Shown here piece after piece: positions 1 to 53,847 of a stretch of DNA of 53,847 nt. Below the pieces are notes generated by a model. The model was not told the DNA's origin. It made no database searches and saw only the letters and a program-made list of their open reading frames with translations. The translations under genes and the position numbers were made by a program. Source of the stretch: a virus; IMG/VR virus record IMGVR_UViG_3300045988_101358, positions 1-53,847 of that record; one strand, given 5' to 3'. The first letter of the stretch is position 1. Each line of letters opens with the position of its first letter.

Positions 1-141
1 ACCTGATTGCTCAAATGTCTACGATGATCGATGATAATACTGCCGGACAGTTCCCTGGTCTGTTCGAGACATTCGAAGAAGGCAATAAATATCCGGCCAA
101 GACCATCGTTCGCTACAAGACCGGTCTGTATCGTGTTATTC
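1..141. repeat. Terminal direct repeat identical to 53707-53847. Assembly overlap of a circular or terminally redundant genome; unit length 53,706 bp.
   Basis: Both ends read acctgattgctcaaatgtctacgatg...ggtctgtatcgtgttattc. Compared base by base. Confidence 0.95.
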
Positions 142-401
142 AGGACGTTCCTGAGAACACGGATGGAACCCCGGACTCTCTGGACGGAACATATTTCGAA
201 CGTATCGAACGTCCGGATCTCATGGATCCAGATGAGAATATGAACAATAACGACGTATATTCCTGGCTCTCTCCGGCCAAGATCGATCAGACCTATTCCG
301 AAGGCGATATCGTTTTGTGGAAGGGCTCTAAGTGGCGTTCTGACCGGAACTATAACGCCTTCGAACCTGGTGTTCAGGGTTGGACCGAATATACCGATTG
401 A
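1..401 (+). CDS. 3' portion of the wrap-around tail-fibre-like gene. The C-terminus has CBM5/12-like aromatic repeats.
   Basis: Same frame as 53361 (53706 is divisible by 3). YSEGDIVLWKGSKWRSDRNYNAFEPGVQGWTEY and YPAKTIVRYKTGLYRV resemble carbohydrate-binding CBM5/12 motifs. Lies in the fibre block. Confidence 0.6.
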   Translation, partial: LIAQMSTMIDDNTAGQFPGLFETFEEGNKYPAKTIVRYKTGLYRVIQDVPENTDGTPDSLDGTYFERIERPDLMDPDENMNNNDVYSWLSPAKIDQTYSEGDIVLWKGSKWRSDRNYNAFEPGVQGWTEYTD

Positions 402-421
402 TATTTTAGTAAGGAGTCACC

Positions 422-604
422 ATGGCCCGTATCAACTCATATCCCAAAGCATCATCCATGAATAATGATGATGTTCTTATCATTGATGGAGCCACTGCTG
501 GTACTCGTACGGTGACTCCTCTCACATTGGTATCGAAAGTGGCTGAACCTATTACCAACGACCAGATCGATCAGATGTTTGAGAATCTTAAAGCTAATCA
601 GTAA
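422..604 (+). CDS. Small tail-module protein (60 aa), function unknown.
   Basis: taaggagtcacc-ATG. Tightly packed between fibre genes. Confidence 0.55.
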   Translation: MARINSYPKASSMNNDDVLIIDGATAGTRTVTPLTLVSKVAEPITNDQIDQMFENLKANQ

Positions 605-619
605 ACTAAGGAGTTTCCT

Positions 620-1060
620 ATGGTTGATTTTCTTGGCAGGGGGGGGGTCTCCCACCTAATCACTAAGATGCTCGACACCGTATATCCGGTGAATAGCATT
701 TATATTTCTCTTGATTCTACCTCCCCGGCCTCTCTGTATGGAGGTACGTGGGAGCGCTTCGGTAAAGGCAAGACGCTGGTTGGCGTAGACGAAGCCGATA
801 CCGATTTCGAAACTGCCGGTCTCACCGGTGGGGAGAAGAAACATACGTTGACAAGTGCGGAGATTCCAGTCATTTCTGGAAGATTCGTACAGCAATCAAG
901 CCATGACTATGGCCTGAGTCTTGTTGTTCGTGGACTTGTTAATGGCGCGGACACGCGATATATGGGAATCGGTCCTATTGTACCTGATGGTACTCACGAC
1001 CAAGGACATAACAACATTCAGCCGTATGTGTCAGTCTATATATGGAAGAGGGTCAGCTGA
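620..1060 (+). CDS. Tail-collar-like fibre/baseplate protein, paralogue 1 (current orientation of switch 1).
   Basis: RBS aaggag. MVDFLGRGGVSHLITKMLDTVYPVNSIYISLDSTSPASLYGGTWERFGKGKTLVGV...GLTGGEKKHTLT matches the Gram-positive phage tail-collar/baseplate pattern. C-terminus is NNIQPYVSVYIWKRVS. Confidence 0.75.
   Translation: MVDFLGRGGVSHLITKMLDTVYPVNSIYISLDSTSPASLYGGTWERFGKGKTLVGVDEADTDFETAGLTGGEKKHTLTSAEIPVISGRFVQQSSHDYGLSLVVRGLVNGADTRYMGIGPIVPDGTHDQGHNNIQPYVSVYIWKRVS
639..647 (+). repeat. Poly-G tract (G9) at codons 7-10 of paralogue 1; currently in frame.
   Basis: ggc agg ggg ggg gtc, counted directly. Confidence 0.9.
818..852. repeat. Left arm of the perfect 35-bp inverted repeat of switch 1, inside the paralogue 1 coding sequence.
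   Basis: ggtctcaccggtggggagaagaaacatacgttgac equals the reverse complement of 1267-1301. Confidence 0.95.
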
Positions 1061-1266
1061 CTCGTTTCCAGATATACACACTCACGAATGGTTGAAGATT
1101 GTTATGAGGCTGCCCACCGCCTGCGGCGTTAATATGGCGTGTATCATCCCACCAAGCCTTGTTATAAGATGGTGAAATAAACCACAGAACATTATATCTG
1201 GTGTCTTGAGTTCCATCCTGATACCCAACATGTAATCCATGATTGTGTTTGGGCATTTCGGCTATA
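1053..1266 (-). other. Silent (start-less) alternative C-terminal cassette for paralogue 1.
   Basis: Minus-strand frame is open through the repeat: ...EYHGLTGGEKKHTLT|IAEMPKHNHGLHVGYQDG...GGGQPHNNLQPFVSVYIWKRVS*. No ATG or RBS of its own. Exactly in phase with the repeat (1+3n nt). Carries the canonical collar motif LT-IAEMPKHNHG. Confidence 0.8.
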
Positions 1267-1301
1267 GTCAACGTATGTTTCTTCTCCCCACCGGTGAGAC
1301 C
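1267..1301. repeat. Right arm of the 35-bp inverted repeat of switch 1.
   Basis: gtcaacgtatgtttcttctccccaccggtgagacc is the reverse complement of 818-852. Confidence 0.95.
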
Positions 1302-1341
1302 ATGATATTCCGAAAGGATCCTATTATGGTATCATTTCTCG

Positions 1342-1854
1342 ATGGGGGGTACTTCTCATCTGATTTCTAAGCTTCTCGACACTATATACCCCGTCGGAAG
1401 CATTTATATGTCCGTGAATGACACCAGTCCTGCTGCGATATTTGGCGGTACGTGGGAGCGCTTCGCCAATGGTCGAACGTTGATGGGTGTTAATTCTGCG
1501 GATAAGGATTTTAGTACCCCTGCTCACACCGGAGGTGCTAAGGAAGTTACACATGCGCATCACACTCCGTTCGGTTCAGAACAGGGTGCCAACCAATCAT
1601 GGAGCGCCATGTGGGATCATCGTGGCTCGACCAAGGTTTCCGCCTATGTGGATAACAAAGTCAAGATTAAGAACGGATATACGAACGAACTATATTTCGA
1701 AACGTATGCCGTCAAATCGCCATATCATTTCTATGTTATGGATGGCGAAACCAGTGATAGCAATGCTACTGCAACGATCGGTGCGACATATTCCACTACC
1801 ATGCCAATTCTTCCACCCTATATCACCGTTTATATTTGGCAGCGTCTCAGCTAA
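1342..1854 (+). CDS. Tail-collar-like fibre protein, paralogue 2. Its natural start (ATG 1326, good RBS) is out of frame because of a G6 tract.
   Basis: cgaaaggatcctatt-ATG(1326) encodes MVSFLDGG, then stops at 1368. The long frame starts at ATG 1342 inside the tract: MGGTSHLISKLLDTIYPVGSIYMSVNDTSPAAIFGGTWERF...YITVYIWQRLS. Homologous to paralogues 1 and 3. Confidence 0.7.
   Translation: MGGTSHLISKLLDTIYPVGSIYMSVNDTSPAAIFGGTWERFANGRTLMGVNSADKDFSTPAHTGGAKEVTHAHHTPFGSEQGANQSWSAMWDHRGSTKVSAYVDNKVKIKNGYTNELYFETYAVKSPYHFYVMDGETSDSNATATIGATYSTTMPILPPYITVYIWQRLS
1344..1349 (+). repeat. Poly-G tract (G6) at the position homologous to the G9 tract of paralogue 1. G5 or G8 would join ATG 1326 to the long frame.
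   Basis: gat gggggg tact, counted directly. Confidence 0.9.
1522..1552. repeat. Left arm of the perfect 31-bp inverted repeat of switch 2, inside the paralogue 2 coding sequence.
   Basis: gctcacaccggaggtgctaaggaagttacac equals the reverse complement of 2053-2083. Encodes AHTGGAKEVT. Confidence 0.95.
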
Positions 1855-2052
1855 CTCTTTGCCAGATATAAACAATATAGTACGGCGGGAGAATGCGAAT
1901 CGGATCGCCGCCTCCGGTATCCTTAGTCGTGGTAACGTTTACTCCGGTAGAATCTGGCGCTGAGGCTTCTGCCTTAGGGCCATATCCTGCCTGATGCCCT
2001 CCGGACCACACAGACATACTGTGAGAGTGCGGAGGAAGCTGAGAAACGGTTA
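1847..2052 (-). other. Silent (start-less) alternative C-terminal cassette for paralogue 2.
   Basis: My translation of the reverse complement, in phase with the repeat (2+3n nt): (EVT)LTVSQLPPHSHSMSVWSGGHQAGYGPKAEASAPDSTGVNVTTTKDTGGGDPIRILPPYYIVYIWQRVS*. It has no internal stop and no start codon, so it is absent from the ORF track. Confidence 0.8.
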
Positions 2053-2083
2053 GTGTAACTTCCTTAGCACCTCCGGTGTGAGC
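2053..2083. repeat. Right arm of the 31-bp inverted repeat of switch 2.
   Basis: gtgtaacttccttagcacctccggtgtgagc is the reverse complement of 1522-1552. Confidence 0.95.
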
Positions 2084-2102
2084 TTATCAGAAGGACATTC
2101 TT

Positions 2103-2564
2103 ATGGTAAATTTTCTCGACAATGCCGGAACTCAACATTTCATCACAAAACTGCTCGATACGGTATATCCGGTTAGTAGCATTTATATCACCACTAGCGA
2201 TACCTCTCCTGCGAGTTTCCTTGGAGGCTCCTGGGAGAGGTATGCTAAAGGTCGTACATTAATTGGTGTGAATGAAAAGGACAAGGATTTTATAGATGCG
2301 ACTCATTCCGGTGGTAGCAAGACTCAGATCGTAGATGGTGGGGCCTTCAGGGCTCATATTGCCTTTAATTCTGCTGGACGTTTCTGGTTCCAACAGGATG
2401 AATCGACAGAGCCCTGGAATAGCACATCATCTGTGGATAATGTTAGATATGACTGGAACACTGGGACATGGGGAACTAAAACAGGCATCCGCATATCCAA
2501 CAAACAGACCCTTAATAATCTCCCTCCATTCCAAACAGTCTATATTTGGCGAAGGATCGCGTAA
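2103..2564 (+). CDS. Tail-collar-like fibre protein, paralogue 3. No poly-G tract and no inverted cassette.
   Basis: RBS gaagga. MVNFLDNAGTQHFITKLLDTVYPVSSIYITTSDTSPASFLGGSWERY...PPFQTVYIWRRIA. Confidence 0.75.
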   Translation: MVNFLDNAGTQHFITKLLDTVYPVSSIYITTSDTSPASFLGGSWERYAKGRTLIGVNEKDKDFIDATHSGGSKTQIVDGGAFRAHIAFNSAGRFWFQQDESTEPWNSTSSVDNVRYDWNTGTWGTKTGIRISNKQTLNNLPPFQTVYIWRRIA

Positions 2565-2580
2565 CGAAAGACAGGAAATA

Positions 2581-2931
2581 GTGTCACCTCAGATGTCAAT
2601 GATGGTTACAATATTATGTTCCGTATTAGGCTCATCTGGCATCTGGGGATGCCTTCAGTATTTGTTGAACAGGCATAATTCCGATCGTGATCTCGTCGTG
2701 GGTCTCGCCCATGTACGAATCACGGAATTGGCTCTGAAATACCTCGATCGTGGGTATATCATGAAATCGGAGTATGATGAGTTATACCACTACCTCTTCG
2801 AACCATATTGTCGTGCAGGTGGCAATGGAACATGCGCCGAGCTCATGGAACGGGTGACCAATGAACTCAAGATCTATGATTCACCCTCTCAAATCCCAAA
2901 GGAGTTACTCGAACATGACGAATCCGAATGA
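2581..2931 (+). CDS. Membrane-anchored protein upstream of the holin, function unknown.
   Basis: GTG 2581 lies 8 nt after gaaagac (ATG 2593 is an alternative start). N-terminal hydrophobic MMVTILCSVLGSSGIWGCLQYLL. The long ORF-track N-terminus (2335) overlaps paralogue 3 and is rejected. Confidence 0.55.
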   Translation: MSPQMSMMVTILCSVLGSSGIWGCLQYLLNRHNSDRDLVVGLAHVRITELALKYLDRGYIMKSEYDELYHYLFEPYCRAGGNGTCAELMERVTNELKIYDSPSQIPKELLEHDESE

Positions 2932-3364
2932 TATTCCGACACCGGTTCTGGACGCACAGACCGATAAGGTGAATGACTCTGCGCAGGAAACCGTTTCTGC
3001 ATCGACTGTCGCCCCTTCCGATATGGTCCAGAGTCTGCTGTCTTCAAAGCAGTACAACATTCTCAAGTGGGTGGTCATTATCGTGCTGCCCGCGATCACT
3101 ACCGTTTACGGCACGTTCTCGAATATCTGGGGATGGCCGTACGGTGATCAGATCGTGGCATCGTTCTCCGCTATTACGTTGTTCCTGGGTATCATCATTG
3201 GCGTGTCCACGAGCTCTTATAATATGTCTTCGGCAGGTCCATCCGGTACTCTGGTAGTGGACCGTACTGATGCGAATACCCAGACATATTTGGCGTTTAA
3301 CCAAGATCCGAAGACCATTGCTGATGGTAGCCAGATCACCCTCAACGTAAAGCATGTCAAATAG
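2915..3364 (+). CDS. Holin, Dp-1-like family.
   Basis: aaaggag upstream. KQYNILKWVVIIVLPAITTVYGTFSNIWGWPYGDQIVASFSAITLFLGIIIGVSTSSY matches my recollection of the Dp-1 holin pattern (two TM helices). Confidence 0.6.
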   Translation: MTNPNDIPTPVLDAQTDKVNDSAQETVSASTVAPSDMVQSLLSSKQYNILKWVVIIVLPAITTVYGTFSNIWGWPYGDQIVASFSAITLFLGIIIGVSTSSYNMSSAGPSGTLVVDRTDANTQTYLAFNQDPKTIADGSQITLNVKHVK

Positions 3365-3366
3365 TA

Positions 3367-3392
3367 CGCGATATTTACAACTTCCTTAATGG
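3367..3392 (+). promoter_or_regulatory. Copy 1 of the conserved 26-nt intergenic motif CGCGAR-AWWWACAA-N5-TTAATGA.
   Basis: cgcgat atttacaa cttcc ttaatgg. Confidence 0.5.
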
Positions 3393-3419
3393 TACACAAT
3401 CAAACGAAAGGAACACATT

Positions 3420-3812
3420 ATGGGAGAGTCCAACGAAAACGTATTGACGCTGGATGATGTGAAACAGGATCTGTATACCCAGATCAAGGCAATGGATGCT
3501 AGCACTGATGGCTACACCAATGCTGTGAACAACCTCAAGACGGTTGCGGAAATCGAAAAGATTGACCAAGAGACTGATGCCGCAAGGGCGCAGTCCGATA
3601 TGGCTATCGAAGATCATGAGATCGAAGTTGGCCGTAAGGATGAACCTAAGCGTGCTGATGTCTTTGGCGCGATCAAGTCGATCGATCCGAGAATCGTCCA
3701 GACGGTCATCACAGCGGCGACGCAGCTTGTAGCGCTGAGCACTGTTGTAAGGCTGGAAAACGCAGGTCAGATGGTTCACACCAAAGGTATCAATTGGTTA
3801 CCGAGGATCTGA
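3420..3812 (+). CDS. Hypothetical protein (130 aa).
   Basis: cgaaaggaacacatt-ATG. Confidence 0.65.
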   Translation: MGESNENVLTLDDVKQDLYTQIKAMDASTDGYTNAVNNLKTVAEIEKIDQETDAARAQSDMAIEDHEIEVGRKDEPKRADVFGAIKSIDPRIVQTVITAATQLVALSTVVRLENAGQMVHTKGINWLPRI

Positions 3813-3842
3813 TATGATGCACCACTAGGTGTGTTGTAGTAC

Positions 3843-3887
3843 GAAAGGAAAGTCGCGTTATATTCACGTGGCTTTCCTTTTTCGTTT
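3843..3887 (+). terminator. Hairpin plus T-run (intrinsic terminator candidate).
   Basis: gaaaggaaag...ctttcctttt followed by tcgttt. Confidence 0.45.
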
Positions 3888-3913
3888 CGCGAAATTTACA
3901 ATCATCTTAATGA
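3888..3913 (+). promoter_or_regulatory. Copy 2 of the 26-nt motif. Here it coincides with a sigma70-like promoter.
   Basis: cgcgaa atttacaa tcatc ttaatga. TTTACA (3895-3900), 17 nt, then TATAAT (3918-3923). Confidence 0.55.
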
Positions 3914-3942
3914 TAAGTATAATATCTATGAAAGGATATCTG

Positions 3943-4206
3943 ATGGAGTACACTGATAACGACTACACTAGGGACTTCTTGATTTCGACTGGTCTCACTA
4001 TCATCACCATGATCGCATGGCTCGACGACATTGTAAAAGCTCTCTCGAGCAAGCGCTATGTACGCGCTGCTGGAGGGTTCTTTGGAATGCTGGTGAGCTT
4101 TGCGGTATGGGTGGTGTCAATTGCCTCCAGTTATGAACTGAAGAAACTCTGCGAGTCCGAATCAGATGATGAATCTGAGAATACTGAAAAGATTGAAGAG
4201 ATCTAA
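3943..4206 (+). CDS. Small membrane protein (87 aa, two hydrophobic segments, acidic tail).
   Basis: tgaaaggatatctg-ATG. MEYTDNDYTRDFLISTGLTIITMIAW...FFGMLVSFAVWVVSIA. Confidence 0.65.
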   Translation: MEYTDNDYTRDFLISTGLTIITMIAWLDDIVKALSSKRYVRAAGGFFGMLVSFAVWVVSIASSYELKKLCESESDDESENTEKIEEI

Positions 4207-4209
4207 CTG

Positions 4210-4255
4210 AAAAGGATTGATGCATATTTGCATTGATCCTTTTCTTTTATTTTTG
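4210..4255 (+). terminator. Intrinsic terminator candidate.
   Basis: aaaaggattgatgca...tgcattgatcctttt followed by cttttattttt. Confidence 0.6.
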
Positions 4256-4267
4256 AGAGGAGAAGCC

Positions 4268-4624
4268 ATGGAGTATGTTATCCTGACTATGGCGTTATTA
4301 TTGGTTGGATGGATTGCTTCAAGAGCCGATAAATTCAAATTATCGTCTTCTGTCTATATTGCCGAAGAGGATGATGGATGGGTTGTGTATTCCAGGACTT
4401 TGGATTCCATCATATATTTCGTCGATAAATGGAATGATAATCTGGACATGTACGGGGAGGTCACGCTGTATGATTTCCCTGGTGTGTACTGGAATCAGCC
4501 TGTGTATAAAGTAGATATTGACGGACGCCCACCTCATGAGAACGGTTATATTTACAAACTACATCTCCCAGAAGTCAGTGATGACTTGGGATATAGGAGA
4601 GTATTAAAGAAAAATGAAAATTAA
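4268..4624 (+). CDS. Membrane-anchored hypothetical protein (118 aa).
   Basis: gagaggagaagcc-ATG. MEYVILTMALLLVGWIASR. Confidence 0.6.
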   Translation: MEYVILTMALLLVGWIASRADKFKLSSSVYIAEEDDGWVVYSRTLDSIIYFVDKWNDNLDMYGEVTLYDFPGVYWNQPVYKVDIDGRPPHENGYIYKLHLPEVSDDLGYRRVLKKNEN

Positions 4625-5066
4625 TGATAAAATAAAGACGATTATAGAATGGATTTTGATTGGCGTGCTTGGTGTCATATTTAGTGCCACCATGATATTT
4701 AGCGTATGGTGGAGTATTACGCAAGATCCTGATACTATCGATACAACGCCTGTCGAGATTGTCGGAACCTATGAAGTGCGAGATCTTCATGATGAAAGCA
4801 TTCCTGCCAATATCAAAGTCATTGCAATATATCTCAACGATAACCCTAAGGAACGCTTATACTGGTATGGCACTCTGAATATAGATGCATGCAAAGCCGG
4901 AGATTCATGGACCTCTACAGCATACAATACGTCGGATGAAAAACATAAGCAGTTTGAGTGCTATCCCGATACCGGCGAAATTGGTTTTTATATGAAGAAA
5001 GGAGATACCAAAGTATTCGTCAAAGTCGAACCTGAGCATAGTTCGCGAAATTTACAATGTAGTTAA
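4614..5066 (+). CDS. Membrane-anchored hypothetical protein (150 aa).
   Basis: N-terminal TM segment IIEWILIGVLGVIFSATMIFSVWW. Overlaps the previous stop. Confidence 0.6.
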   Translation: MKINDKIKTIIEWILIGVLGVIFSATMIFSVWWSITQDPDTIDTTPVEIVGTYEVRDLHDESIPANIKVIAIYLNDNPKERLYWYGTLNIDACKAGDSWTSTAYNTSDEKHKQFECYPDTGEIGFYMKKGDTKVFVKVEPEHSSRNLQCS

Positions 5067-5069
5067 TGA
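5044..5069 (+). promoter_or_regulatory. Copy 3 of the 26-nt motif.
   Basis: cgcgaa atttacaa tgtag ttaatga. TTTACA, 17 nt, then TATATT (5074-5079). Confidence 0.5.
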
Positions 5070-5176
5070 GAAGTATATTATCTATAGCATTAGTGGATCA
5101 ATGCGCTCGGAAACGAGAGATCGTCGGTTCGAAGCCGACAGTTTATACTTCTATAATTTTTGGCCAAATCAATGGC

Positions 5177-5202
5177 CGCGAAATTTACAACCCACTTAAT
5201 GA
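5177..5202 (+). promoter_or_regulatory. Copy 4 of the 26-nt motif.
   Basis: cgcgaa atttacaa cccac ttaatga. Confidence 0.5.
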
Positions 5203-5222
5203 AATCTATGAAAGGAGACATT

Positions 5223-5447
5223 ATGTGGGAAGATAGACTTGGATGCTGGTTGGCCGGAATCGGAATCGATCCGTACACATTCTTCACGATCGTATTACTC
5301 GTATGCATAACTGCATTATGCGTATTGGCATATTCGATTGGAAAGGATTCTGTACAGAAAGAAACTCCGAAATCTCAGCCTAAACCGGAACCTAAGGTCA
5401 TTGTCTACCCTCCGGATTGCTTCTATGATCAAGAAAAAGACAAGTAA
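5223..5447 (+). CDS. Small membrane protein (74 aa).
   Basis: gaaaggagacatt-ATG. FFTIVLLVCITALCVLAYSI. Confidence 0.65.
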   Translation: MWEDRLGCWLAGIGIDPYTFFTIVLLVCITALCVLAYSIGKDSVQKETPKSQPKPEPKVIVYPPDCFYDQEKDK

Positions 5448-5451
5448 ACAC

Positions 5452-5491
5452 AAGCCGATTGGCGCGAAAAGCGCTGGTCGGCTTATTCTTT
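5452..5491 (+). terminator. Intrinsic terminator.
   Basis: aagccgattggcgc gaaaa gcgctggtcggctt (14-bp stem including G-U pairs) followed by attcttt. Confidence 0.7.
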
Positions 5492-5506
5492 GAAAGGAAT
5501 TATATT

Positions 5507-5692
5507 ATGAACATCACTGGAACTCAAATCACCGTCTGCGCAGCAGTAGTTGGCATAGTAGCTATCATCGGAGGAGCTGTATACACACTAGGATATGATA
5601 ACGGATATAATAGTGGTATAGATGCAGTCGTTCAAATCAATAGACGTGCTATCGCAGAATTCAATGGTGTATTTGCCAAGAAGGAAAGCTGA
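5507..5692 (+). CDS. Small membrane protein (61 aa).
   Basis: tttgaaaggaattatatt-ATG. VCAAVVGIVAIIGGAVYTLG. Confidence 0.65.
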   Translation: MNITGTQITVCAAVVGIVAIIGGAVYTLGYDNGYNSGIDAVVQINRRAIAEFNGVFAKKES

Positions 5693-5700
5693 ATCATATT

Positions 5701-5907
5701 ATGAATAAATATAAGGCGCATGAAATCCGTATGTGGATTCAAAACATCATTATCCCCGCTGTAGGCATTGGCGCATATGTTCTGAGTCAACATCCAGAAC
5801 TCCTTGACAAGTTCAAAAACGTAGTGACATTTGAATCCATTAAGGAAGAAAATGACCCGCTTACGTTAAGCAAGAAATTCAACAACCCATTCAAGAAGGA
5901 GAACTGA
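5701..5907 (+). CDS. Small membrane protein (68 aa).
   Basis: IRMWIQNIIIPAVGIGAYVLS. Tight packing. Confidence 0.55.
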   Translation: MNKYKAHEIRMWIQNIIIPAVGIGAYVLSQHPELLDKFKNVVTFESIKEENDPLTLSKKFNNPFKKEN

Positions 5908-5910
5908 GCA

Positions 5911-6195
5911 ATGACTGCTCTCTTTGGAAAGGACAATAAAATGACTGTCGAGCATAAGCTGGACCCAGAGTCCATTGAAGAGTCCGTCGACACACTGAAG
6001 GCGGCTTCTAAGAAGAAGGTTCAAGATACTGTCGAGAATGCAACTTCAGATAGGAATGTGAACCGATTCCTCGTATTCACCTTCGGAGTACTCGCTGGTA
6101 TGGCAATCGCGAATACCATGAACGCACGGAGGCCCATTCAGGTTAACGTGCTCCCTACCTCACAAATACCTATGGCTATGTGGGGTAACCACTGA
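5911..6195 (+). CDS. Small protein with a C-terminal TM segment (94 aa).
   Basis: aaggagaactgagca-ATG. FLVFTFGVLAGMAIANTM. Confidence 0.6.
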   Translation: MTALFGKDNKMTVEHKLDPESIEESVDTLKAASKKKVQDTVENATSDRNVNRFLVFTFGVLAGMAIANTMNARRPIQVNVLPTSQIPMAMWGNH

Positions 6196-6204
6196 ATCAT
6201 ATTT

Positions 6205-6237
6205 AGGCCCTGATTTGCACTCAGGGCCTTTATCTTT
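6205..6237 (+). terminator. Intrinsic terminator.
   Basis: aggccctga tttgcac tcagggcct followed by ttatcttt. Confidence 0.7.
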
Positions 6238-6251
6238 GAAAGGATGCAAAC

Positions 6252-6626
6252 ATGTCTGAATATTTCATTGCGCTCGCATTTATCTGCGGCATTATATTGT
6301 GCACGTATTTAACCATGACGTCAGTACTTGGATACAGCAGGCATCCAAGGACCATACAACTTTTCCCTCGATGGACTTGTTACGAAGTCGATCGAGATAA
6401 TTTTAGACTTCTGTTCAAGGATTGGATGGTTGCTGATCATTTTCAGTCTGAATGGAACGAAGCATATGAATTACATCATCGAATCGAATTACCAGAATTC
6501 GAAGGAATTATATTCACCAGTAGAATAAATTCCCCATATACTATTCCAAATGTGGAATATCCGTTTGCTGTAGATCTTGGATCGTTTACTACAGACCTTG
6601 GATCGAACGAACTGTTCACTTTTTGA
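6252..6626 (+). CDS. Membrane-anchored hypothetical protein (124 aa).
   Basis: ctttgaaaggatgcaaac-ATG. FIALAFICGIILCTYLTMTSVL. Confidence 0.65.
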   Translation: MSEYFIALAFICGIILCTYLTMTSVLGYSRHPRTIQLFPRWTCYEVDRDNFRLLFKDWMVADHFQSEWNEAYELHHRIELPEFEGIIFTSRINSPYTIPNVEYPFAVDLGSFTTDLGSNELFTF

Positions 6627-6637
6627 AAGGAACTATA

Positions 6638-6868
6638 ATGAATAGCATCATCGAAATTATCAAGAACTTCTGCATATTTGTGACTCTCTGTACGTTCGCC
6701 GGTCTCTGTGGAGTATGGTTCTTCATATTCTGTCTTGTAGAGCATGACAAGCACTTTGTGGGTACTATTTCTGAGAGAATCCACGATATTTCTCGTGTCA
6801 CTCCTCGCTATATTAAATGGAAGGCCAATCGTCTGCTCGGCGAACAGGTATTCGCTATTGCAGCGTAA
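6638..6868 (+). CDS. Small membrane protein (76 aa).
   Basis: ttttgaaaggaactata-ATG. FCIFVTLCTFAGLCGVWFFIFCLV. Confidence 0.6.
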   Translation: MNSIIEIIKNFCIFVTLCTFAGLCGVWFFIFCLVEHDKHFVGTISERIHDISRVTPRYIKWKANRLLGEQVFAIAA

Positions 6869-6894
6869 TGATATTTCTTTGAAAGGAATCGATC

Positions 6895-7245
6895 ATGACA
6901 ACTATTGAATGTATCCTCTACGGCGTTTTCGCTGCGGCCGCCTGCATAGTTACATATTTCATCGGGCATCATATGGGTATTAAAGAAGGCGTTGATATTG
7001 GCACTACCGGCAGTATTGACAACTTCTGCAAATTCCTCAACTCTAATGATGGCAAGGGCTTCATGCGTCATTACATCTTTGCCCATGAATTGCCGTATTT
7101 GGTCAAAACCATCGGTACCGAAGAAGCTGTAGAGAAAGGTTTGCGTATCGCAGAAGACTACGAATCTCTTAGCGTCGATACGGCTGCTAAGGAGACTATC
7201 GCCGAAGCTGAAGATATTCTGAACGATCTTGGAAAGGAAAACTGA
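6895..7245 (+). CDS. Membrane-anchored hypothetical protein (116 aa).
   Basis: ctttgaaaggaatcgatc-ATG. CILYGVFAAAACIVTYFIG. Confidence 0.65.
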   Translation: MTTIECILYGVFAAAACIVTYFIGHHMGIKEGVDIGTTGSIDNFCKFLNSNDGKGFMRHYIFAHELPYLVKTIGTEEAVEKGLRIAEDYESLSVDTAAKETIAEAEDILNDLGKEN

Positions 7246-7895
7246 TGCATCTCGTACTGGTAGGAGCCACCTGCGCAGGAAAAACAACACTCGCCGAATA
7301 CATGGCGAAACGCGGATTCCGTCGGATTATCACCTATACGACTCGTCCGAAGCGTGATTATGAAATCGATGCCTCGAAGATGAGCCCGATGGAAGTTCGA
7401 TACGCTGATCCGCCGGCCGATTACTTCTTTGTCTCTCAGGACGAGTTCGACAAGGCCAAGGCGAATGGATATTTCGCCGAGACGACCTCATACAACGCGT
7501 CGTTCGGATATTGTGAGTACGGCTCTACGGTTGAAGACTGGAAGAGTTCTGATGATACCGTCTGTGTACTCAATCCGGATGGTGTAAGGCAGCTCAAGCA
7601 AGAAGGCTATGATATTTTCGTAGTGTATATCAATACGGACTTCACCGAATGCATTGATCGAGCTCGCCAGCGTGGCGATGATGACAAGGAGATTGCTCGT
7701 CGCATGGCCCATGATATTACAGATCTTAAGAACTTTGAGAATGAGATCGTGTCGCGTACAGCCAGCCTTGATGCTGATGGAAACGTCATTCCTGGTTCAA
7801 AGCACGAAGAGCATCTGTATGACATCATGATTCCATGTGTTGGTGATCTTGAGAGCGTTGCTCAGAACATCATGAGCGCTCAAAAGAAACACTAG
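7245..7895 (+). CDS. Guanylate-kinase-like nucleoside monophosphate kinase.
   Basis: P-loop GATCAGKTTL, TYTTRPKRDYE, YFFVSQDEFDKAKANGYFAE...YGST, RARQRGDDD. This follows the guanylate kinase motif order. Confidence 0.6.
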   Translation: MHLVLVGATCAGKTTLAEYMAKRGFRRIITYTTRPKRDYEIDASKMSPMEVRYADPPADYFFVSQDEFDKAKANGYFAETTSYNASFGYCEYGSTVEDWKSSDDTVCVLNPDGVRQLKQEGYDIFVVYINTDFTECIDRARQRGDDDKEIARRMAHDITDLKNFENEIVSRTASLDADGNVIPGSKHEEHLYDIMIPCVGDLESVAQNIMSAQKKH

Positions 7896-18657: not shown

Positions 18658-19266
18658 ATGGCAATCAAAAAGAAGCTCGATCGTGTTAAGCTCGACTCCT
18701 GCGAGATCATCTTCCGCAACTTCTCCGGAACCGGTGGCAAGTTCAATCCCGAAGGCAACCGCAACTTCTGTGTTATTCTTTCCGAAGAAGAAGGCAATGC
18801 ATTGCAGGCTGCTGGATGGAATGTCAAGCGTCGCCCTCCGCGTGAGGATGGTGAACAGCTTCCTCCATACCTCAAGGTGAACATCGGCAAGGACAGCTTC
18901 GAGAAGGGCCGTACCAAGATCTATCGTATGGACGTGGATACTCAGGGCAAGCCTCGTCGTGACGCCAATGGAGATATTGTCAAGGCCGTTCTGGATCCAC
19001 AGACGGTTGGCGGTCTGGATTCGGCTTATATTGTGGACGCTCAGGTCATCCTGTCGCCATATTTCTACGACATTCAGGGTCGCAGTGGCATTTCGGCCTA
19101 TGTGGACGAGATGACCGTCGTGGTACAGATGGACCCCTGGACTGCCAAGTATGAGGACTTCAATTCGGAGAACCCTGACTCGGCCATGAACACTACGACC
19201 TTCGAGGTTGTCGGTGCAAAACAGTTCAATGGTAAGCTTGCCGGAACGGACGATCCTCAGTTCTAA
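18658..19266 (+). CDS. Possible phage ssDNA-binding protein.
   Basis: ctgaaaggaatattatc-ATG. IIFRNFSGTGGKFNPEGNRNFCVILSEEEGNALQAAGWNVK resembles phage SSB-like proteins, and the gene sits in the replication module. Weak call. Confidence 0.35.
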   Translation: MAIKKKLDRVKLDSCEIIFRNFSGTGGKFNPEGNRNFCVILSEEEGNALQAAGWNVKRRPPREDGEQLPPYLKVNIGKDSFEKGRTKIYRMDVDTQGKPRRDANGDIVKAVLDPQTVGGLDSAYIVDAQVILSPYFYDIQGRSGISAYVDEMTVVVQMDPWTAKYEDFNSENPDSAMNTTTFEVVGAKQFNGKLAGTDDPQF

Positions 19267-23432: not shown

Positions 23433-23729
23433 ATGAAACGAGAAGGAAAGTTTCAGAATGAACTTATCACAGACATCAAGCGACTGTTGCCTGGTTGTAT
23501 CGTGATGAAGAACGACCCTGATTATATTCAGGGCATCCCAGACTTGACCGTGCTCTACAAGAAACGTTGGGCTTGCTTGGAAGTCAAGCGAACCAACAAT
23601 TCTCCCCATCGTCCGAATCAGGATTATTACGTTCAGCTCATGAACTCCATGAGCTTTGCTGCATTCGTATGTCCTGAGAACAAAGACGAAGTTCTATCTG
23701 CACTATTCAAGGAACTGGAAAGACTATGA
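23433..23729 (+). CDS. VRR-NUC-type nuclease.
   Basis: EGKFQNELITDIKRL...GIPDLTVLYKKRWACLEVKR...NQDYYVQLMNS fits the VRR-NUC D...E-x-K...Q pattern. Confidence 0.6.
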   Translation: MKREGKFQNELITDIKRLLPGCIVMKNDPDYIQGIPDLTVLYKKRWACLEVKRTNNSPHRPNQDYYVQLMNSMSFAAFVCPENKDEVLSALFKELERL

Positions 23730-24283
23730 AATTCAATGATCATCATCAACTTGATGGTATGCATTCATTTTTGAGTGCATCGAAGTGGCATTGGGTAAAT
23801 TACGCACCTGAGCATCTCGATGATATTTATCGCTCATCGATGGCTGCACAGCTTGGAACCGAACTTCATGCTTTGGCTTCAGACCTTATCAAGCATGGCG
23901 TGAAGCTTCCGCGCAATAAGAAGACACTCAACCAGTTTGTTAATGATGCTATTGGTTGGAAGATGGCTTCCGAGCAAGTTCTGTTTTATTCTATGAATGC
24001 TTTTGGCACAGCTGATGCTATTTCCTTCGATGGCAAGCTGCTTCGCATTCATGATCTTAAGACTGGAGTCATTCCGGCTCATATGGAGCAGCTTGAAATC
24101 TATGCTTCATATTTTTGCCTTGAGTATGACGTGAAGCCTGAAGACATCGACATGATTCTGAGGATCTATCAGAATGATGACATTGTCGAGGTAGAACCCG
24201 AACCTCAGGATATTCGTGACATCATGGGTAAGATCGTACTCTTTGACAAACGTATTGAACAACTCAAGCAGGAAGGAGTCTGA
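23726..24283 (+). CDS. PD-(D/E)XK (RecB/Cas4-like) nuclease.
   Basis: GTELHAL..., FGTADAISFDGKLLRIHDLKTG, QLEIYASY. Confidence 0.55.
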   Translation: MKFNDHHQLDGMHSFLSASKWHWVNYAPEHLDDIYRSSMAAQLGTELHALASDLIKHGVKLPRNKKTLNQFVNDAIGWKMASEQVLFYSMNAFGTADAISFDGKLLRIHDLKTGVIPAHMEQLEIYASYFCLEYDVKPEDIDMILRIYQNDDIVEVEPEPQDIRDIMGKIVLFDKRIEQLKQEGV

Positions 24284-24284
24284 C

Positions 24285-27182
24285 ATGTTCGTGGTTGACG
24301 AATCTGAACTTGAACATTCCGGAACTCCTCATGCTGGAAGTGTTCCGCATTCCGGTCGATACAAGTGGGGCTCTGGAGAAAATCCAGGTCAGCACGACAA
24401 TTCGTTCAGAACTCAATATAGGAATTTCAAGAAGCAGGGTTTTACTGAAGCCGAAATTGTCAAAGCAATGGGGCTTAAGTCTACTGCTGAACTTCGAGTT
24501 CTAAACAAGGTCAATCGTGAACAGGAAGGCTTCGAGCAGACCCAGCGAGCTAGGAAGCTGATTGAAGAGAACGGATATTCTCTATCCGCAGCAGCTCGTA
24601 AGGTTGGCTTGAGTGAGTCGACGCTTCGCAGTCGTCTTAAGAGTTCTTTCGAAGAGCGAGCTTCTCGTACTTCGAAGGCTGCATCATATTTGCAGGAGCA
24701 AGTCGACAAAGGCGCTCTTGTGGATGTCGGTGAAGGCTCTTGGACTTATCTTGGAGTCTCCAAGGCTGTGCTCGATGCAGCTGTCCGTAAGCTGAAGGAT
24801 CAAGGATATTCTGTTGAGACTATCGAAGTCCCTCAGGTTTCCGATCCCGATCATATGACTAAGATCAAAGTTCTGGCGCCGAAAGGTATGGCTTGGAAGG
24901 ATATTCAGGCTAACAAGAACAAGATTCAAGTGATCGACCACAGCTTTGATGAATCTCCGCTTATTTCCAAATCAGACAAAACGCTCCCTGAGAGCGTCAG
25001 TTCTAAGAGAGTCAAGGTTGTCTTTGATGAGGAAGGTGGAACTCAGCGAGATGGAAATATTCTTGTTCGTCCTGGCGTCGAAGATGTAGCTCTTGGTGGT
25101 AATCACTACGCTCAGGTTCGAATCGCCGTGGATGGGACACACTATCTTAAGGGTACTGCCATGTATGGTGACCCTAAGGATTTCCCTCCTGGTGTCGATC
25201 TCATTTTCAATTCCAACAAACCAAGATCTGTTGGCAAGCTTGGTGCTTTGAAAGAGCTGAAGACCGACAAAGATGGTAAAATTGATCAGAACCTTCCTTT
25301 TGGTGCTGTGACTCGTAAGCTTACCTACACTGACAAGAATGGTCAGGAACATATTTCCAAGATCAATCTTGTTCGTGAGGAAGGCGAATGGGATACCTGG
25401 TCTAGGAATCTTCCTTCTCAGATGCTGTCTAAGCAATCTCGTGAGCTGGCTCATCGCCAGTTGGGCATTGCTTATGAACGTTCTTTCTCTGAGTATCAGG
25501 ATATTCTCAAGCTGAGTAATCCTGCCGTCAAGCGAAAGCTTCTTCAGGAATTTTCTGATGAGTGTGATCGTAAGGCTGTGGATCTCAAAGCTGCTGCGAT
25601 GCCTCGTCAGTCTACCCATGTTATTCTCCCGATTCCTTCTTTGAAGGACAACGAAATATATGCTCCTTCATTCCGTAATGGCGAACGAGTTGCATTGATT
25701 CGATTCCCTCATGGTGGAACGTTTGAGATTCCAGAGCTTATTGTAAATAACAATAACCGTGAAGCTCGACAGCGTTTGGGGAATGGCAAGGGCATGTCTC
25801 TTGATGCGGTTGGTATTAACCATAAGGTTGCTGCTCGACTTTCTGGAGCTGACTTTGATGGCGATACTGTTCTGGTTATTCCAAACAATCGTGGAGAAAT
25901 TAAGAGTACTAATCCTCTTAAGGGTCTTGAAGACTTTGATCCTTCTTCAGCTTATCCAGCATATCCTGGAATGAAGAAAGTCAAGACTGATAAGGCTTTT
26001 AATAAGCAGGCTGAAATGGGAAAGGTCAGTAATCTTATTACTGACATGACCATTAAGGGTGCTACTCCTGATAAGATCGCTCGTGCTGTTCGTCATTCTA
26101 TGGTTGTCATCGATGCTGAAAAGCATAATTTGGATTGGCGTAAATCCTATGAGGATAATGGTATTGCTGATCTTAAACGAGAGTATCAGGGCACTGCTCC
26201 TAATGGCCAGCTTCGTGGCGCATCGACTCTTATTTCTCGAGCATCTGCTACGCAATATGTGAATGCTCGAGAAAAAAATCCTGCAAGATATGGAGGTTCC
26301 ATAGATCCCGATACTGGAAAAATATGGTATAGGGAAACTGGAAAGGGCTCTACGGAAGTTGCTTATCGTGACCCTACCAAACCAGGAAAGAGGCCAGGCT
26401 CTCCAGGTAGGAAGACCTGGGCTTCAGAGCGCAAGTTCCATGCTCTTGTAAAGAAGGGTGAAATTCCGGAATCTACAAAAATTATAGATACCAGGTTTAA
26501 GCCCCGTCTTCAGGAGTCTAAGAAGATGCTTGAAGTAGATGATGCTTTTGAGTTGTCTTCTGGTACCAACATGGAATGGGAGTATGCTACCTATGCTAAT
26601 AGGATGAAGGCCCTAGCTAATGATGCTAGAAAGGCTTTGCTAGCCACTCCTAATGCGCCCTATAGTCCATCCGCCCATAAGGCCTACGCTGAAGAGGTGG
26701 CTTCTCTCAAGGCTAAGCTTAACACAGCCTTGAAGAACAAGCCTCTTGAACGCAAGGCTCAGCTCATTGCCGGTAACATAGTACGCAGCCAGCGCATCTC
26801 TAACCCTGACCTAGACGAAGACGAGTTGAAGAAGCTGCGCACCACAGCGCTTGAGACAGCTCGTGCTAGGACAGGAGCACTCAATGCTGAAGGCAAGCGT
26901 GTAACATTCACTCCACGTGAATGGGAAGCTGTGCAAGCTGGTGCCATCTCCCATACCATGCTCACTGAGCTGCTGAAGAACGCAGACAGTGGTGTGGTAA
27001 AGGAGCTTGCTACACCACATAGTGACAAGGGTAAGATGAACAATGTCTTGATTGCTCGTGCTCGAGCCTTGCTCAATGCAGGCAACATGACACAGAATGA
27101 AGTGGCTGATCTACTTGGCGTTAGTGTTAACACCTTGAAGGCCAACCTCAACCCCAAGTCGAAGTTGAATCAAGAGAGGTGA
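24285..27182 (+). CDS. 965-aa HTH-flanked protein with a beta-prime-like double-psi beta-barrel catalytic motif (candidate YonO/RdRP-like single-subunit RNA polymerase).
   Basis: ggaaggagtctgac-ATG. ERVALIRFPHGGTFEIPELIV...VGINHKVAARLSGADFDGDTVLVIPNN parallels beta-prime R-x-P-x-x-H ... NADFDGDQM. HTH-like segments at the N-terminus (GYSLSAAARKVGLSESTLRSRL) and C-terminus (MTQNEVADLLGVSVNTLKANL). Confidence 0.45.
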   Translation: MFVVDESELEHSGTPHAGSVPHSGRYKWGSGENPGQHDNSFRTQYRNFKKQGFTEAEIVKAMGLKSTAELRVLNKVNREQEGFEQTQRARKLIEENGYSLSAAARKVGLSESTLRSRLKSSFEERASRTSKAASYLQEQVDKGALVDVGEGSWTYLGVSKAVLDAAVRKLKDQGYSVETIEVPQVSDPDHMTKIKVLAPKGMAWKDIQANKNKIQVIDHSFDESPLISKSDKTLPESVSSKRVKVVFDEEGGTQRDGNILVRPGVEDVALGGNHYAQVRIAVDGTHYLKGTAMYGDPKDFPPGVDLIFNSNKPRSVGKLGALKELKTDKDGKIDQNLPFGAVTRKLTYTDKNGQEHISKINLVREEGEWDTWSRNLPSQMLSKQSRELAHRQLGIAYERSFSEYQDILKLSNPAVKRKLLQEFSDECDRKAVDLKAAAMPRQSTHVILPIPSLKDNEIYAPSFRNGERVALIRFPHGGTFEIPELIVNNNNREARQRLGNGKGMSLDAVGINHKVAARLSGADFDGDTVLVIPNNRGEIKSTNPLKGLEDFDPSSAYPAYPGMKKVKTDKAFNKQAEMGKVSNLITDMTIKGATPDKIARAVRHSMVVIDAEKHNLDWRKSYEDNGIADLKREYQGTAPNGQLRGASTLISRASATQYVNAREKNPARYGGSIDPDTGKIWYRETGKGSTEVAYRDPTKPGKRPGSPGRKTWASERKFHALVKKGEIPESTKIIDTRFKPRLQESKKMLEVDDAFELSSGTNMEWEYATYANRMKALANDARKALLATPNAPYSPSAHKAYAEEVASLKAKLNTALKNKPLERKAQLIAGNIVRSQRISNPDLDEDELKKLRTTALETARARTGALNAEGKRVTFTPREWEAVQAGAISHTMLTELLKNADSGVVKELATPHSDKGKMNNVLIARARALLNAGNMTQNEVADLLGVSVNTLKANLNPKSKLNQER

Positions 27183-53360: not shown

Positions 53361-53847
53361 ATGCGCATTGTTGATAAAGATAACAAAGAACTCGATCCGA
53401 ATAAACTGGATCTTCGTAAGGGGCATCTGGTGGATGACAAGATCTTCGTCAAGCACCATGATGCTCAGGAGAAGGTCGAGGAAGTCTCTCATTATGAGAC
53501 CGTTCGTTTCTATTCGAATGGCGGCATGGATGTCGAGAAGGTCATTGACACCCCTGGCCAGGAGGCTAAGGATGCCTATGACGAATATGAGGATGTCCAG
53601 CGCTACATCGAGTACACTCAGAGCGAGTTGGACACTCAGGACAAGAGCACTGCCACTGCCGTCGTGAATGGTAACATGAACGATCAGATCATGACGGCTA
53701 TGCCCTACCTGATTGCTCAAATGTCTACGATGATCGATGATAATACTGCCGGACAGTTCCCTGGTCTGTTCGAGACATTCGAAGAAGGCAATAAATATCC
53801 GGCCAAGACCATCGTTCGCTACAAGACCGGTCTGTATCGTGTTATTC
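53361..53847 (+). CDS. 5' portion of a wrap-around tail-fibre/receptor-binding-like gene. It continues at 1-401 once the overlap is collapsed (248 aa total).
   Basis: ATG 53361 follows tgaaaggagcgcgca. The frame (MRIVDKDNKELDPNKLDLRKGH...) stays open to the window end and is in phase with ORF 15-401. Confidence 0.7.
   Translation, partial: MRIVDKDNKELDPNKLDLRKGHLVDDKIFVKHHDAQEKVEEVSHYETVRFYSNGGMDVEKVIDTPGQEAKDAYDEYEDVQRYIEYTQSELDTQDKSTATAVVNGNMNDQIMTAMPYLIAQMSTMIDDNTAGQFPGLFETFEEGNKYPAKTIVRYKTGLYRVI
53707..53847. repeat. Second copy of the 141-bp terminal overlap (equals 1-141).
   Basis: Identical to bases 1-141. Confidence 0.95.

Follow-up and report, generated by a model that had tools for sequence, protein, structure and literature searches.

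The DNA stretch analysed here, positions 1–53,847 of IMG/VR virus record IMGVR_UViG_3300045988_101358 (53,847 nt; hereafter the window), contains three phage genes of the Gp10_C family (PF21939), located between the tail and lysis genes. Two of these paralogues were each found to carry a pair of perfect inverted repeats (IR1 and IR2) that enclose a segment with two convergent C-terminal gene cassettes. The second unit, switch 2 in paralogue 2, is the main subject of this analysis, and it consists of the following parts in the window:

1326–1854, plus strand: paralogue 2, a small Gp10_C-family tail/baseplate protein (PF21939, E = 1.9e-23)
1522–1552, plus strand: IR2 left arm, encoding AHTGGAKEVT, which holds the family-wide TGG(E/A)K motif at the constant/variable border
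1553–2052, no strand assigned: invertible segment 2, 500 nt, with two convergent C-terminal cassettes; its orientation varies among relatives
1553–1854, plus strand: cassette 2A, expressed in the window, 100 codons (HAHHTPFGSEQ...PPYITVYIWQRLS, then stop)
1847–2052, minus strand: cassette 2B, silent in the window, 68 codons (LTVSQLPPHSHS...PPYYIVYIWQRVS, then stop)
2053–2083, minus strand: IR2 right arm, exact reverse complement of the left arm

The plus-strand 31-mer at 1522–1552 is GCTCACACCGGAGGTGCTAAGGAAGTTACAC, and its exact reverse complement was found at 2053–2083 after a spacing of 500 nt, as had been claimed in an earlier sequence-only reading of the window. The pair was not reproduced in any of 100 dinucleotide-preserving shuffles of the window (two repeat matches in 0 of 100). 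When the whole window (53.8 kb) was scanned for perfect inverted repeats that are 18 nt or longer and spaced 100–2500 nt apart, just two pairs were returned, 1522–1552/2053–2083 (31 nt) and 818–852/1267–1301 (35 nt). Translation confirmed that the IR2 left arm lies inside the open reading frame (ORF) 1342–1854 and codes for AHTGGAKEVT, and the constant N-terminal part of paralogue 2 ends at 1552. Beyond this point, cassette 2A was shown to consist of a long, non-canonical variable head and a C-terminal strand. Cassette 2B conforms to the canonical form of the family and includes an HxH motif; it does not contain a start codon of its own and is read in phase from the right arm. Minus-strand translation from 2083 to 1847 was uninterrupted (AHTGGAKEVTLTVSQLPPHSHS...PPYYIVYIWQRVS, then stop; 78 codons including the repeat). 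The silent frame that the sequence-only reading had translated was open, in phase and identical to ours, except that it has 68 codons past the repeat and not 67, a trivial miscount. The convergent stop codons share 8 nt at 1847–1854 (TCAGCTAA), again in agreement with that reading.

Full-length matches to PF21939 were obtained for all three paralogues (96, 84.4, and 75 bits; cut-off 27), and the silent cassettes of the two switches scored 31.4 and 38.8 bits against the C-terminal half of the same family. For cassette 2B the match covers positions 56–139 of 139 (E = 4.3e-7), which together with the open in-phase frame shows that it is not a chance ORF. This explanation of the silent cassette was rejected on the basis of the Pfam match, the phase and the conservation described below.

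Related genomes of ~53.7 kb from gut phages, comprising about 20 loci from several cohorts and assemblers, were compared with the window. Orientation counts among these loci are biased, as ten of them were retrieved through a flipped-state product. When an in-silico fusion of the constant N-terminus to cassette 2B was used as protein query, full-length natural matches with end-to-end coverage were found, P0001 (144 aa, 90% identity to the in-silico flipped form) and P0002 (144 aa, 81%), besides proteins of the window form (P0003 and P0004, 176 aa). On the 47-kb contig that encodes P0001 (L025), positions 6199–6760 match window 2083→1522 in reverse complement at 96% identity, between flanks that are collinear with window 3–1552 and 2053–7758; the breakpoints are the repeat arms. 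In L039, the unit of repeat, segment 2 and repeat is identical to that of the window at 562 of 562 positions and lies in the opposite orientation between flanks of 99.6–100% identity. An independent ENA record, L127, was found in the same state as the window, with 100% identity across 5 kb. Segment 2 was found reverse-complemented exactly between the repeats in L025 and L029–L039, and in the window orientation in L028, L040, and L127. The search of related phages for the opposite orientation, which had been put forward as a check in the sequence-only reading, was positive (L025 and L039). Both orientations occur naturally in different samples with breakpoints at the repeats, and the repeat arms mark the exact inversion limits in these relatives.

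The two switches had also been predicted to flip independently and to give four combinations. All four were found among the related loci. Both segments have the same orientation as in the window in L040; segment 1 is the same and segment 2 flipped in L025, L029–L032, L035, and L037–L039; segment 1 is flipped and segment 2 the same in L028; and both are flipped in L033 and L034. Pairwise comparisons of the segments showed identical alleles in opposite orientations: segment 2 of the window and L040 (same) differs from that of L039 (flipped) at 0 of 500 positions, the 414-nt allele of segment 1 at 0 of 414 positions between L033 (flipped) and L035 (same), and the 405-nt allele at 0 of 405 positions between L034 (flipped) and L025 (same). 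The presence of zero-mismatch alleles in both orientations three times shows that inversion has been recent and repeated, and not one old event.

These alleles bear directly on the view that the locus holds no programmed switch and that rare accidental old inversions persist as a balanced polymorphism moved by recombination between co-infecting phages. Such a history would fit with the orientation differences being seen between samples only and with the mosaic nature of the fibre module (two segment 1 alleles, 405 and 414 nt long, besides the mosaic protein P0010 and the deletion derivative L125, see below). However, an old polymorphism would leave orientation-specific substitutions, which the three identical alleles do not show. 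Besides, the arms stay perfect and co-evolve, both cassettes are under purifying selection even if silent, and three switches of one design are found in one module. We therefore consider an origin by old inversions improbable.

Breaks located exactly at the repeats were detected in four assemblies (contigs or scaffolds). L001 (IMG/VR) and L041 (ENA) both stop exactly at the inner edge of the switch 2 left arm, one scaffold has a gap of 100 N inside a switch 1 arm, and Logan contigs begin or end at repeat arms. A search of IMG/VR for the exact 31-mer returned one contig alone, which terminates at the repeat. If k was larger than 31, such breaks hint at mixed orientations, although they are suggestive only. 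Two short contigs (L043 and L044) are low-coverage fragments without repeat boundaries and have no bearing on orientation within a sample. The breaks, together with the Logan k-mer length of 31 that equals the repeat length, could also be taken to mean that the segment orientation was set arbitrarily by the assemblers. Against such an artefact, several of the relatives, like the window, are MEGAHIT k141 contigs (k141_ names), for which reads easily span a 31-nt repeat; the orientations were reproduced across assemblers and cohorts; intact full-length ORFs were always present in both orientations; and the independent record L127 repeats the window state without a mismatch. An assembly artefact is accordingly a most improbable source of the two states.

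The features by which gene-altering inversions are generally recognized were all present at switch 2, namely an arm within coding sequence, an inverted partial paralogue and a frame that is kept upon inversion, and the proteins of the flipped form are natural. Taken together, these comparisons leave us almost certain that the locus is a real and recurrent DNA-inversion switch.

Both cassettes were found to be open and in phase in four lineages, including the window clade and the distant L027, whichever of them is expressed. At long divergence (synonymous divergence, dS, of ~1), the ratio of nonsynonymous to synonymous substitution rates (dN/dS) was 0.10–0.24 for both cassettes, including pairs in which both copies are silent. 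For cassette 2B the whole range of 0.10–0.24 was obtained, and for cassette 2A, which is silent but open in L025, the ratio was 0.14–0.17 in comparison with L027. Both cassettes are under purifying selection, even where silent. The sequence-only reading had made its proposal depend on the conservation of frame and phase of the silent cassette in relatives, and this conservation was found in all four lineages.

Among close relatives, the cassettes showed dN/dS values of 1.2–2.4, based on 5–31 substitutions only. These values may come from diversifying selection on the variable head. In L026 (671–1017), decay has reduced the long switch 2 cassette to 37 codons and changed its frame, and the repeat is 29 nt long with one mismatch (97%). 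This copy looks like a locked, degenerating switch and serves as a natural control.

The two arms of a repeat co-evolve. Substitutions were found mirrored in both arms at three positions in L027 IR2, at one position in L028 IR1 and throughout the entire 29-nt IR1 of L027 (TGGCAAAACCGGGGGAGAGAAGGTTCATA; GGTCTCACCGGTGGGGAGAAGAAACATACGTTGAC in the window). Changes without a counterpart in the other arm were limited to two, one in L026, where the switch is decaying, and another in L039/L041, located at the inner edge of IR1. The arms are identical even at synonymous sites, though dS between lineages is ~1, and the IR2 arm is identical across 18 related loci.

The family alignment of PF21939 showed a conserved N-terminal part (YPVGSIYMS...GGTWE...GR.L.G), followed by a TGGEK-HTLT-EMP-HxH motif, a variable stretch and a conserved C-terminal strand (PPY..VY.WKR). 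In switches 1 and 2, the arms lie exactly on TGG(E/A)K, which is the final conserved motif ahead of the variable stretch, and each inversion therefore exchanges the variable stretch together with the closing strand. The constant part was shown to match the C-terminal domain of T4 gp10 (PDB 2FKK, E = 4e-6), and the PHROGs label for the family is tail protein/baseplate wedge subunit. An AlphaFold2 model of the 144-aa form was of moderate quality (pLDDT 74) with weak top Foldseek matches to T4 gp10 (TM about 0.28), and adds nothing to the Pfam assignment. From the T4 gp10-type homology and the gene position, a role of the target protein in host recognition is probable, and a cassette swap would then change receptor or host-strain specificity. 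The four combinations had been described as fibre combinations. Four protein combinations do exist, but the proteins are small (144–176 aa) and of tail-tip/baseplate type, and not long fibres.

Inverted repeats of this kind are not a general property of the family. The more distant Gp10_C loci from IMG/VR (L002–L021) contained no comparable inverted repeats, and of the 80 loci of this family taken from bacterial genomes, two alone, both from Saccharibacteria, were found to have a repeat close to the gene. This rarity among the bacterial loci shows that the switch is lineage-specific. The two Saccharibacteria loci contain perfect inverted repeats of 23–24 nt, one in a metagenome-assembled genome (MAG) of Candidatus Nanosyncoccus (L070, 5990–6012/7236–7258) and the other in a Saccharibacteria MAG (L050, 5950–5973/7818–7841). 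In L070, the arms encode AHNTAKL just ahead of the Gp10_C domain in both a 164-aa ORF and an opposite-strand 790-aa fibre gene; an inversion there would, judging from this layout, exchange whole C-terminal domains. A degenerate HTGGAKEVT pattern search of JGI metagenomes returned only two unrelated high-GC tail-collar genes without DNA similarity; it showed that the peptide motif is family-wide and gave no orientation information.

No serine or tyrosine recombinase was recognisable in the ~75 ORFs of the circular genome by Pfam, PHROGs or NCBIfam, and this applies to PF00239-type serine recombinases as well as to the Phage_integrase/tyrosine recombinase type. The sole match to a catalytic-serine regular expression was located at residue 294 of a Dit-like tail protein, and the PHROG annotated as DNA invertase matched only the helix-turn-helix part of a 988-aa RNA polymerase-like protein. 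Cores of the gix/hix type (AAACC-NN-GGTTT, up to two mismatches) occurred 18 times compared to 17.3 expected, with none in the four arms. The genome's ORFs gave no match to a reverse transcriptase family, and no long direct repeats were found near the genes besides paralogue homology. A diversity-generating retroelement was ruled out, as neither a reverse transcriptase nor a template repeat is present. The layout of a shufflon (at least three cassettes with alternating 11–19 bp repeats) was likewise absent, each switch having one repeat pair and two cassettes. Inversion across switches was not seen among the related loci, which contained one deletion derivative (L125) alone. Two genes of the window are predicted to encode candidate trans-acting factors:

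18658–19266, plus strand: single-strand annealing/single-stranded DNA-binding protein (PF24083, E = 2.5e-34; phrog_4787, E = 7.5e-36)
23726–24283, plus strand: exonuclease, a possible partner of the annealing protein (phrog_3953, E = 1.3e-74; weak DUF2800 match)

Switch 1, switch 2 and a third switch detected in L026 and L027 each have arms of their own sequence, and arm sequences also vary between lineages. Arms that differ in sequence and position, with mirrored substitutions and with identity at synonymous sites, argue against one sequence-specific site. Arms of 30 nt are homogenised by heteroduplex-based exchange, but not by a recombinase with a crossover region of 2–8 bp. We infer that the exchange is driven by homology and not by a sequence-specific invertase, and the full reading of the locus, an inversion switch that includes homology-driven exchange through arms of ~30 nt, is the one we are mildly inclined to accept. 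A flip between the 31-nt arms joins the constant part in frame to either cassette 2A (100 codons), as in the window, or cassette 2B (68 codons). The likeliest agents of the exchange would be the phage exonuclease and single-strand-annealing protein during lytic replication, with host RecA or replication template switching as alternatives within the same homology-driven class. Both ends of a repeat–segment–repeat piece match the target either way, so that a sister copy could be re-inserted flipped as in recombineering, for which arms of 35–50 nt are enough.

The absence of any recombinase family match in the complete genome has also to be weighed against an invertase that is not encoded at the locus and uses the arms as its sites. 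This could be a host enzyme acting in trans, of which Mpi of Bacteroides is an example, or an unrecognised phage recombinase among the many ORFs without a family match. The arms are short, sharply bounded and similar in length in every switch, and the finding of the same alleles in either orientation points to a fairly high rate. The stretch ACCGG-N-GG is found in both switch 1 and switch 2, together with small dyads (CACCGGTG and CACC-GGA-GGTG). The sequence-only reading had described a caccgg(t/a)gg core common to the two repeat pairs, and this holds for the two switches of the window but does not extend to the third switch, the arms of which (GTCGCACCCTTGTGGG(A/G)GTG) lack the CACCGG dyad, or to L027 IR1 (TGGCAAAACCGGGGGAGAG...), which lacks it as well. 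The third switch is moreover located at a different protein position, substitutions are mirrored over whole arms, which is not expected from a 2–8-bp crossover region, and the arms hold no hix/gix-like core. The phage is without an integrase and therefore shows no evident prophage stage that would allow a slow host invertase to act. An invertase in trans has been proposed for a ~500-bp locus without a recombinase in tRNA-Met bifidoprophages (PMC6109161). For the present locus, an enzyme of this kind is a possible but rather unlikely explanation.

Several points nevertheless weigh against a homology-driven switch of receptor-binding proteins. Sharp-edged arms of 28–35 nt, with ACCGG-N-GG common to the first two switches, would be compatible with a site-specific enzyme too. 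Roughly half of the ORFs are without known function and one of them could be a novel recombinase, and the host could supply an invertase in trans. A homology of 30 nt is near the lower limit for general recombination. The names of the annealing protein and the exonuclease are PHROG annotations, and their role in inversion is putative. The orientation differences are those between samples, and breaks at the repeats could come from k-mers of 31 or less alone, as in the Logan contigs. The proposed receptor-binding role, finally, is drawn from homology and position.

A second type of variation was found at the starts of two of the Gp10_C genes, where poly-G tracts are located:

639–647, plus strand: poly-G tract at the 5′ end of paralogue 1, G9 in the window and in frame; G7–G10 among relatives
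1344–1349, plus strand: poly-G tract at the 5′ end of paralogue 2, G6 in the window; G6–G9 among near-identical genomes

For paralogue 1, G9 was the commonest length. For paralogue 2, the window and L127 both have G6 and L028 has G7; tracts of G8 and G9 were found in eight and seven loci, respectively. The ATG of paralogue 2 that is proximal to a Shine-Dalgarno sequence (AAAGGA, 1313–1318) is located at 1326. With G6, as in the window, the frame from this ATG ends at 1368–1370, and the listed ORF begins at an internal ATG at 1342. In relatives with G8, the upstream ATG reads in frame and gives MVSFLDGGGTSHLISK (MVSFLDGGG...); with G6 and G9 the internal ATG at 1342 alone is in frame, and with G7 neither start is. 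Slipped-strand variation between ON, weak and OFF states could be layered on the inversion. Homopolymer assembly error is also a possible source of the variation in tract length.

Switch 1, in the gene directly upstream, was shown to have the same organization, and the third Gp10_C gene follows downstream of switch 2:

620–1060, plus strand: paralogue 1, 146 aa, target of switch 1 (PF21939, E = 4.8e-27)
818–852, plus strand: IR1 left arm, 35 nt, perfect, encoding GLTGGEKKHTLT
853–1266, no strand assigned: invertible segment 1, 414 nt, inverted in L028, L033, and L034
1267–1301, minus strand: IR1 right arm, pairing with 818–852
2103–2564, plus strand: paralogue 3, 153 aa, without a switch in the window (PF21939); its homologue in L026/L027 has the third switch

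The expressed cassette of segment 1 is located at 853–1060 and the silent one at 1266→1053 on the minus strand, with overlapping stops at 1053–1060 (TCAGCTGA). The silent cassette also matches the C-terminal half of PF21939 (E = 2e-9). Segment 1 was found as two alleles, one of 414 nt as in the window and one of 405 nt as in L025, L028, L032, and L034, which have the first cassette in common (~92% identity) and differ in the second. The different second cassettes show that cassettes have been exchanged between strains.

The third switch is located in the homologue of paralogue 3 (L026 1181–2018 and L027 6914–7735). It comprises a segment of 782 nt between perfect arms of 20–28 nt at a GRTLVGV motif, and it was found in opposite orientations in L026 and L027 with both cassettes open. 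Paralogue 3 of the window (2103–2564) does not contain a third-switch cassette.

Further rearrangements were detected at the TGG motif. In a Logan contig of SRR26197773 (L125, reverse complement 1–1000), cassette 3A is joined to cassette 2B at this motif, giving P0006, with loss of the switch 2 right arm and of the paralogue 3 N-terminus. This deletion derivative shows further recombination at the short TGG-motif homology. P0010 (153 aa, from a 36.8-kb Logan contig) is a mosaic protein: it resembles paralogue 3 in its 20 N-terminal residues, is identical to paralogue 1 up to LTGG and corresponds to paralogue 3 in its C-terminal half, which suggests exchange between paralogues at this motif.

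Each switch unit is organized as a diverged palindrome of arm, cassette, overlapping stops, inverted cassette and arm. The cassette ends (window 1007–1106 and 1807–1894) form imperfect palindromes (71–72%) centred on the overlapping stops. The units probably arose when the 3′ half of the gene was duplicated in inverted orientation and the interior then diverged.

The window positions 1–141 are identical to 53707–53847, and this 141-nt end overlap shows that the MEGAHIT k141 contig is a complete circular assembly of ~53.7 kb. Siphovirus-type genes were found to be encoded (TerL, portal, a protease-capsid fusion, a 2644-aa tape measure protein, Dit and a Sipho_Gp37 tail protein), besides replication genes for a DNA polymerase, a primase-helicase and a YonO-like RNA polymerase. 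The genome also encodes a GH25-CW_7-LysM endolysin and a Dp-1-type holin, both of which suggest a Gram-positive host. TerL (31723–33468) showed 76–78% identity to terminases of Streptomyces phages; the genome has a GC content of 47% and comes from human gut samples, and the Streptomyces-phage-like TerL does not identify the gut host. The YonO-like RNA polymerase (24216–27182, 988 aa, phrog_4291) has helix-turn-helix motifs at both ends, and several ORFs similar to HNH endonucleases are scattered in the replication module. A BLASTn search of window 1–3400 against 50,697 GenBank phage records gave no match. Promoter and terminator scans of 300–3000 returned counts at chance level, with no minus-strand promoter that could express the silent cassette alone. 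Taking inversion and tract-length variation together, we tentatively picture an integrase-less gut siphovirus with combinatorial receptor proteins, in which two to three switches with repeats of ~30 nt would be operated by self-recombineering and combined with poly-G control of ON, alternative-start and OFF states; this wider picture should be regarded as somewhat doubtful.

Among known systems, the switch in the window follows the same logic as the G segment of phage Mu with its invertase Gin (and likewise P1 Cin, e14 Pin and p15B Min), where a repeat inside a tail-fibre gene separates a constant N-terminus from alternative C-termini. Switches of the Mu G type provide alternative host specificity and have a bet-hedging design. 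In Mu, the serine invertase Gin is encoded adjacent to the segment and acts on 26-bp gix cores within 34-bp repeats with a Fis-bound enhancer. The window phage, in contrast, contains no recognisable invertase, the gene in which such an enhancer normally lies, and its arms hold no gix/hix-like core. The G segment of Mu is 3 kb long and includes chaperone genes, whereas the segment in the window is 500 nt long and holds two cassette halves alone. The window phage also differs in having two separate switches (three in relatives) in tandem paralogues, no integrase and an apparently Gram-positive host. The term Mu-like fits the logic of this switch, not its enzymology. To our knowledge, the known inversion switches of phage tail fibres (Mu, P1) are those of temperate phages or plasmids with their own invertase. 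The inversion logic itself is known; new in the present case is its occurrence without an integrase, a recognisable invertase or a cultured relative at DNA level.

In Bifidobacterium prophages, the Rin shufflon comprises three to five cassettes with rix sites of 11 bp, and a tyrosine invertase is encoded next to it (Mavrich et al., 2018; PMC6109161). The tRNA-Met bifidoprophages contain an inverted locus of ~500 bp that comprises the 3′ end of a gene and a small gene without a flanking recombinase; only an 8-bp repeat (CAGGGTTA) was reported, the genes are without known function, and an invertase in trans was proposed (PMC6109161). This ~500-bp locus is the closest published precedent. The bifidophage loci resemble the window switch in being from gut phages of Gram-positive hosts in which C-termini of receptor-binding proteins are exchanged by inversion. 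They differ in that the arms in the window phage and its relatives are 28–35 nt long, perfect and co-evolving, the target is a Gp10_C protein, and the exonuclease/annealing pair would offer another route.

In bacteria, the enriched targets of gene-altering programmed inversions include tail fibre and tail-collar genes (Milman et al., 2023; PMC9881135). These inversions, which include the invertons of type I restriction-modification hsdS genes and the R64 pilV shufflon, also have an arm in coding sequence and a downstream inverted partial paralogue. They are, however, usually accompanied by a recombinase gene and located on bacterial chromosomes or prophages, whereas the window switch is found in an integrase-less phage without one. 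Diversity-generating retroelements likewise target the C-terminal receptor-binding part of a phage tail protein, but they do so by a reverse transcriptase, template and variable direct repeats and adenine mutagenesis, and none of these parts was found in the window.

The candidates presented in a 2026 paper are described there as the first putative invertons to come from metagenome-assembled genomes of gut viruses (PMC13501310), and reports of invertons from gut viromes are only beginning in a field that is barely explored. If the exchange is homology-driven, a reversible in-frame switch could be built from an inverted partial gene duplication and ordinary recombination genes alone, and surveys keyed on invertase genes would miss such switches. 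A perfect coding inverted repeat of ~30 nt with an in-phase inverted paralogous cassette would in that case serve as a rule applicable to sequence only. This rule could locate host-range switches in viromes and account for assembly breaks in tail modules, with relevance to host-range prediction and the engineering of therapeutic phages.

The isomers of chloroplast and herpesvirus genomes flip-flop by general recombination between inverted repeats. Besides, Anabaena cyanophages were reported to contain an invertible region of ~30 kb between repeats of 400–700 nt, for which isomerisation without a recombinase was suggested (bioRxiv 10.64898/2026.02.14.705889). Like the window switch, such flip-flop isomers are possible without a dedicated recombinase, and both isomers are present among close relatives without phylogenetic signal. 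They rely on repeats of at least 400–700 bp and turn large gene blocks without recoding a protein, whereas in the window phage arms of ~30 nt splice alternative C-termini in frame to a constant tail protein.

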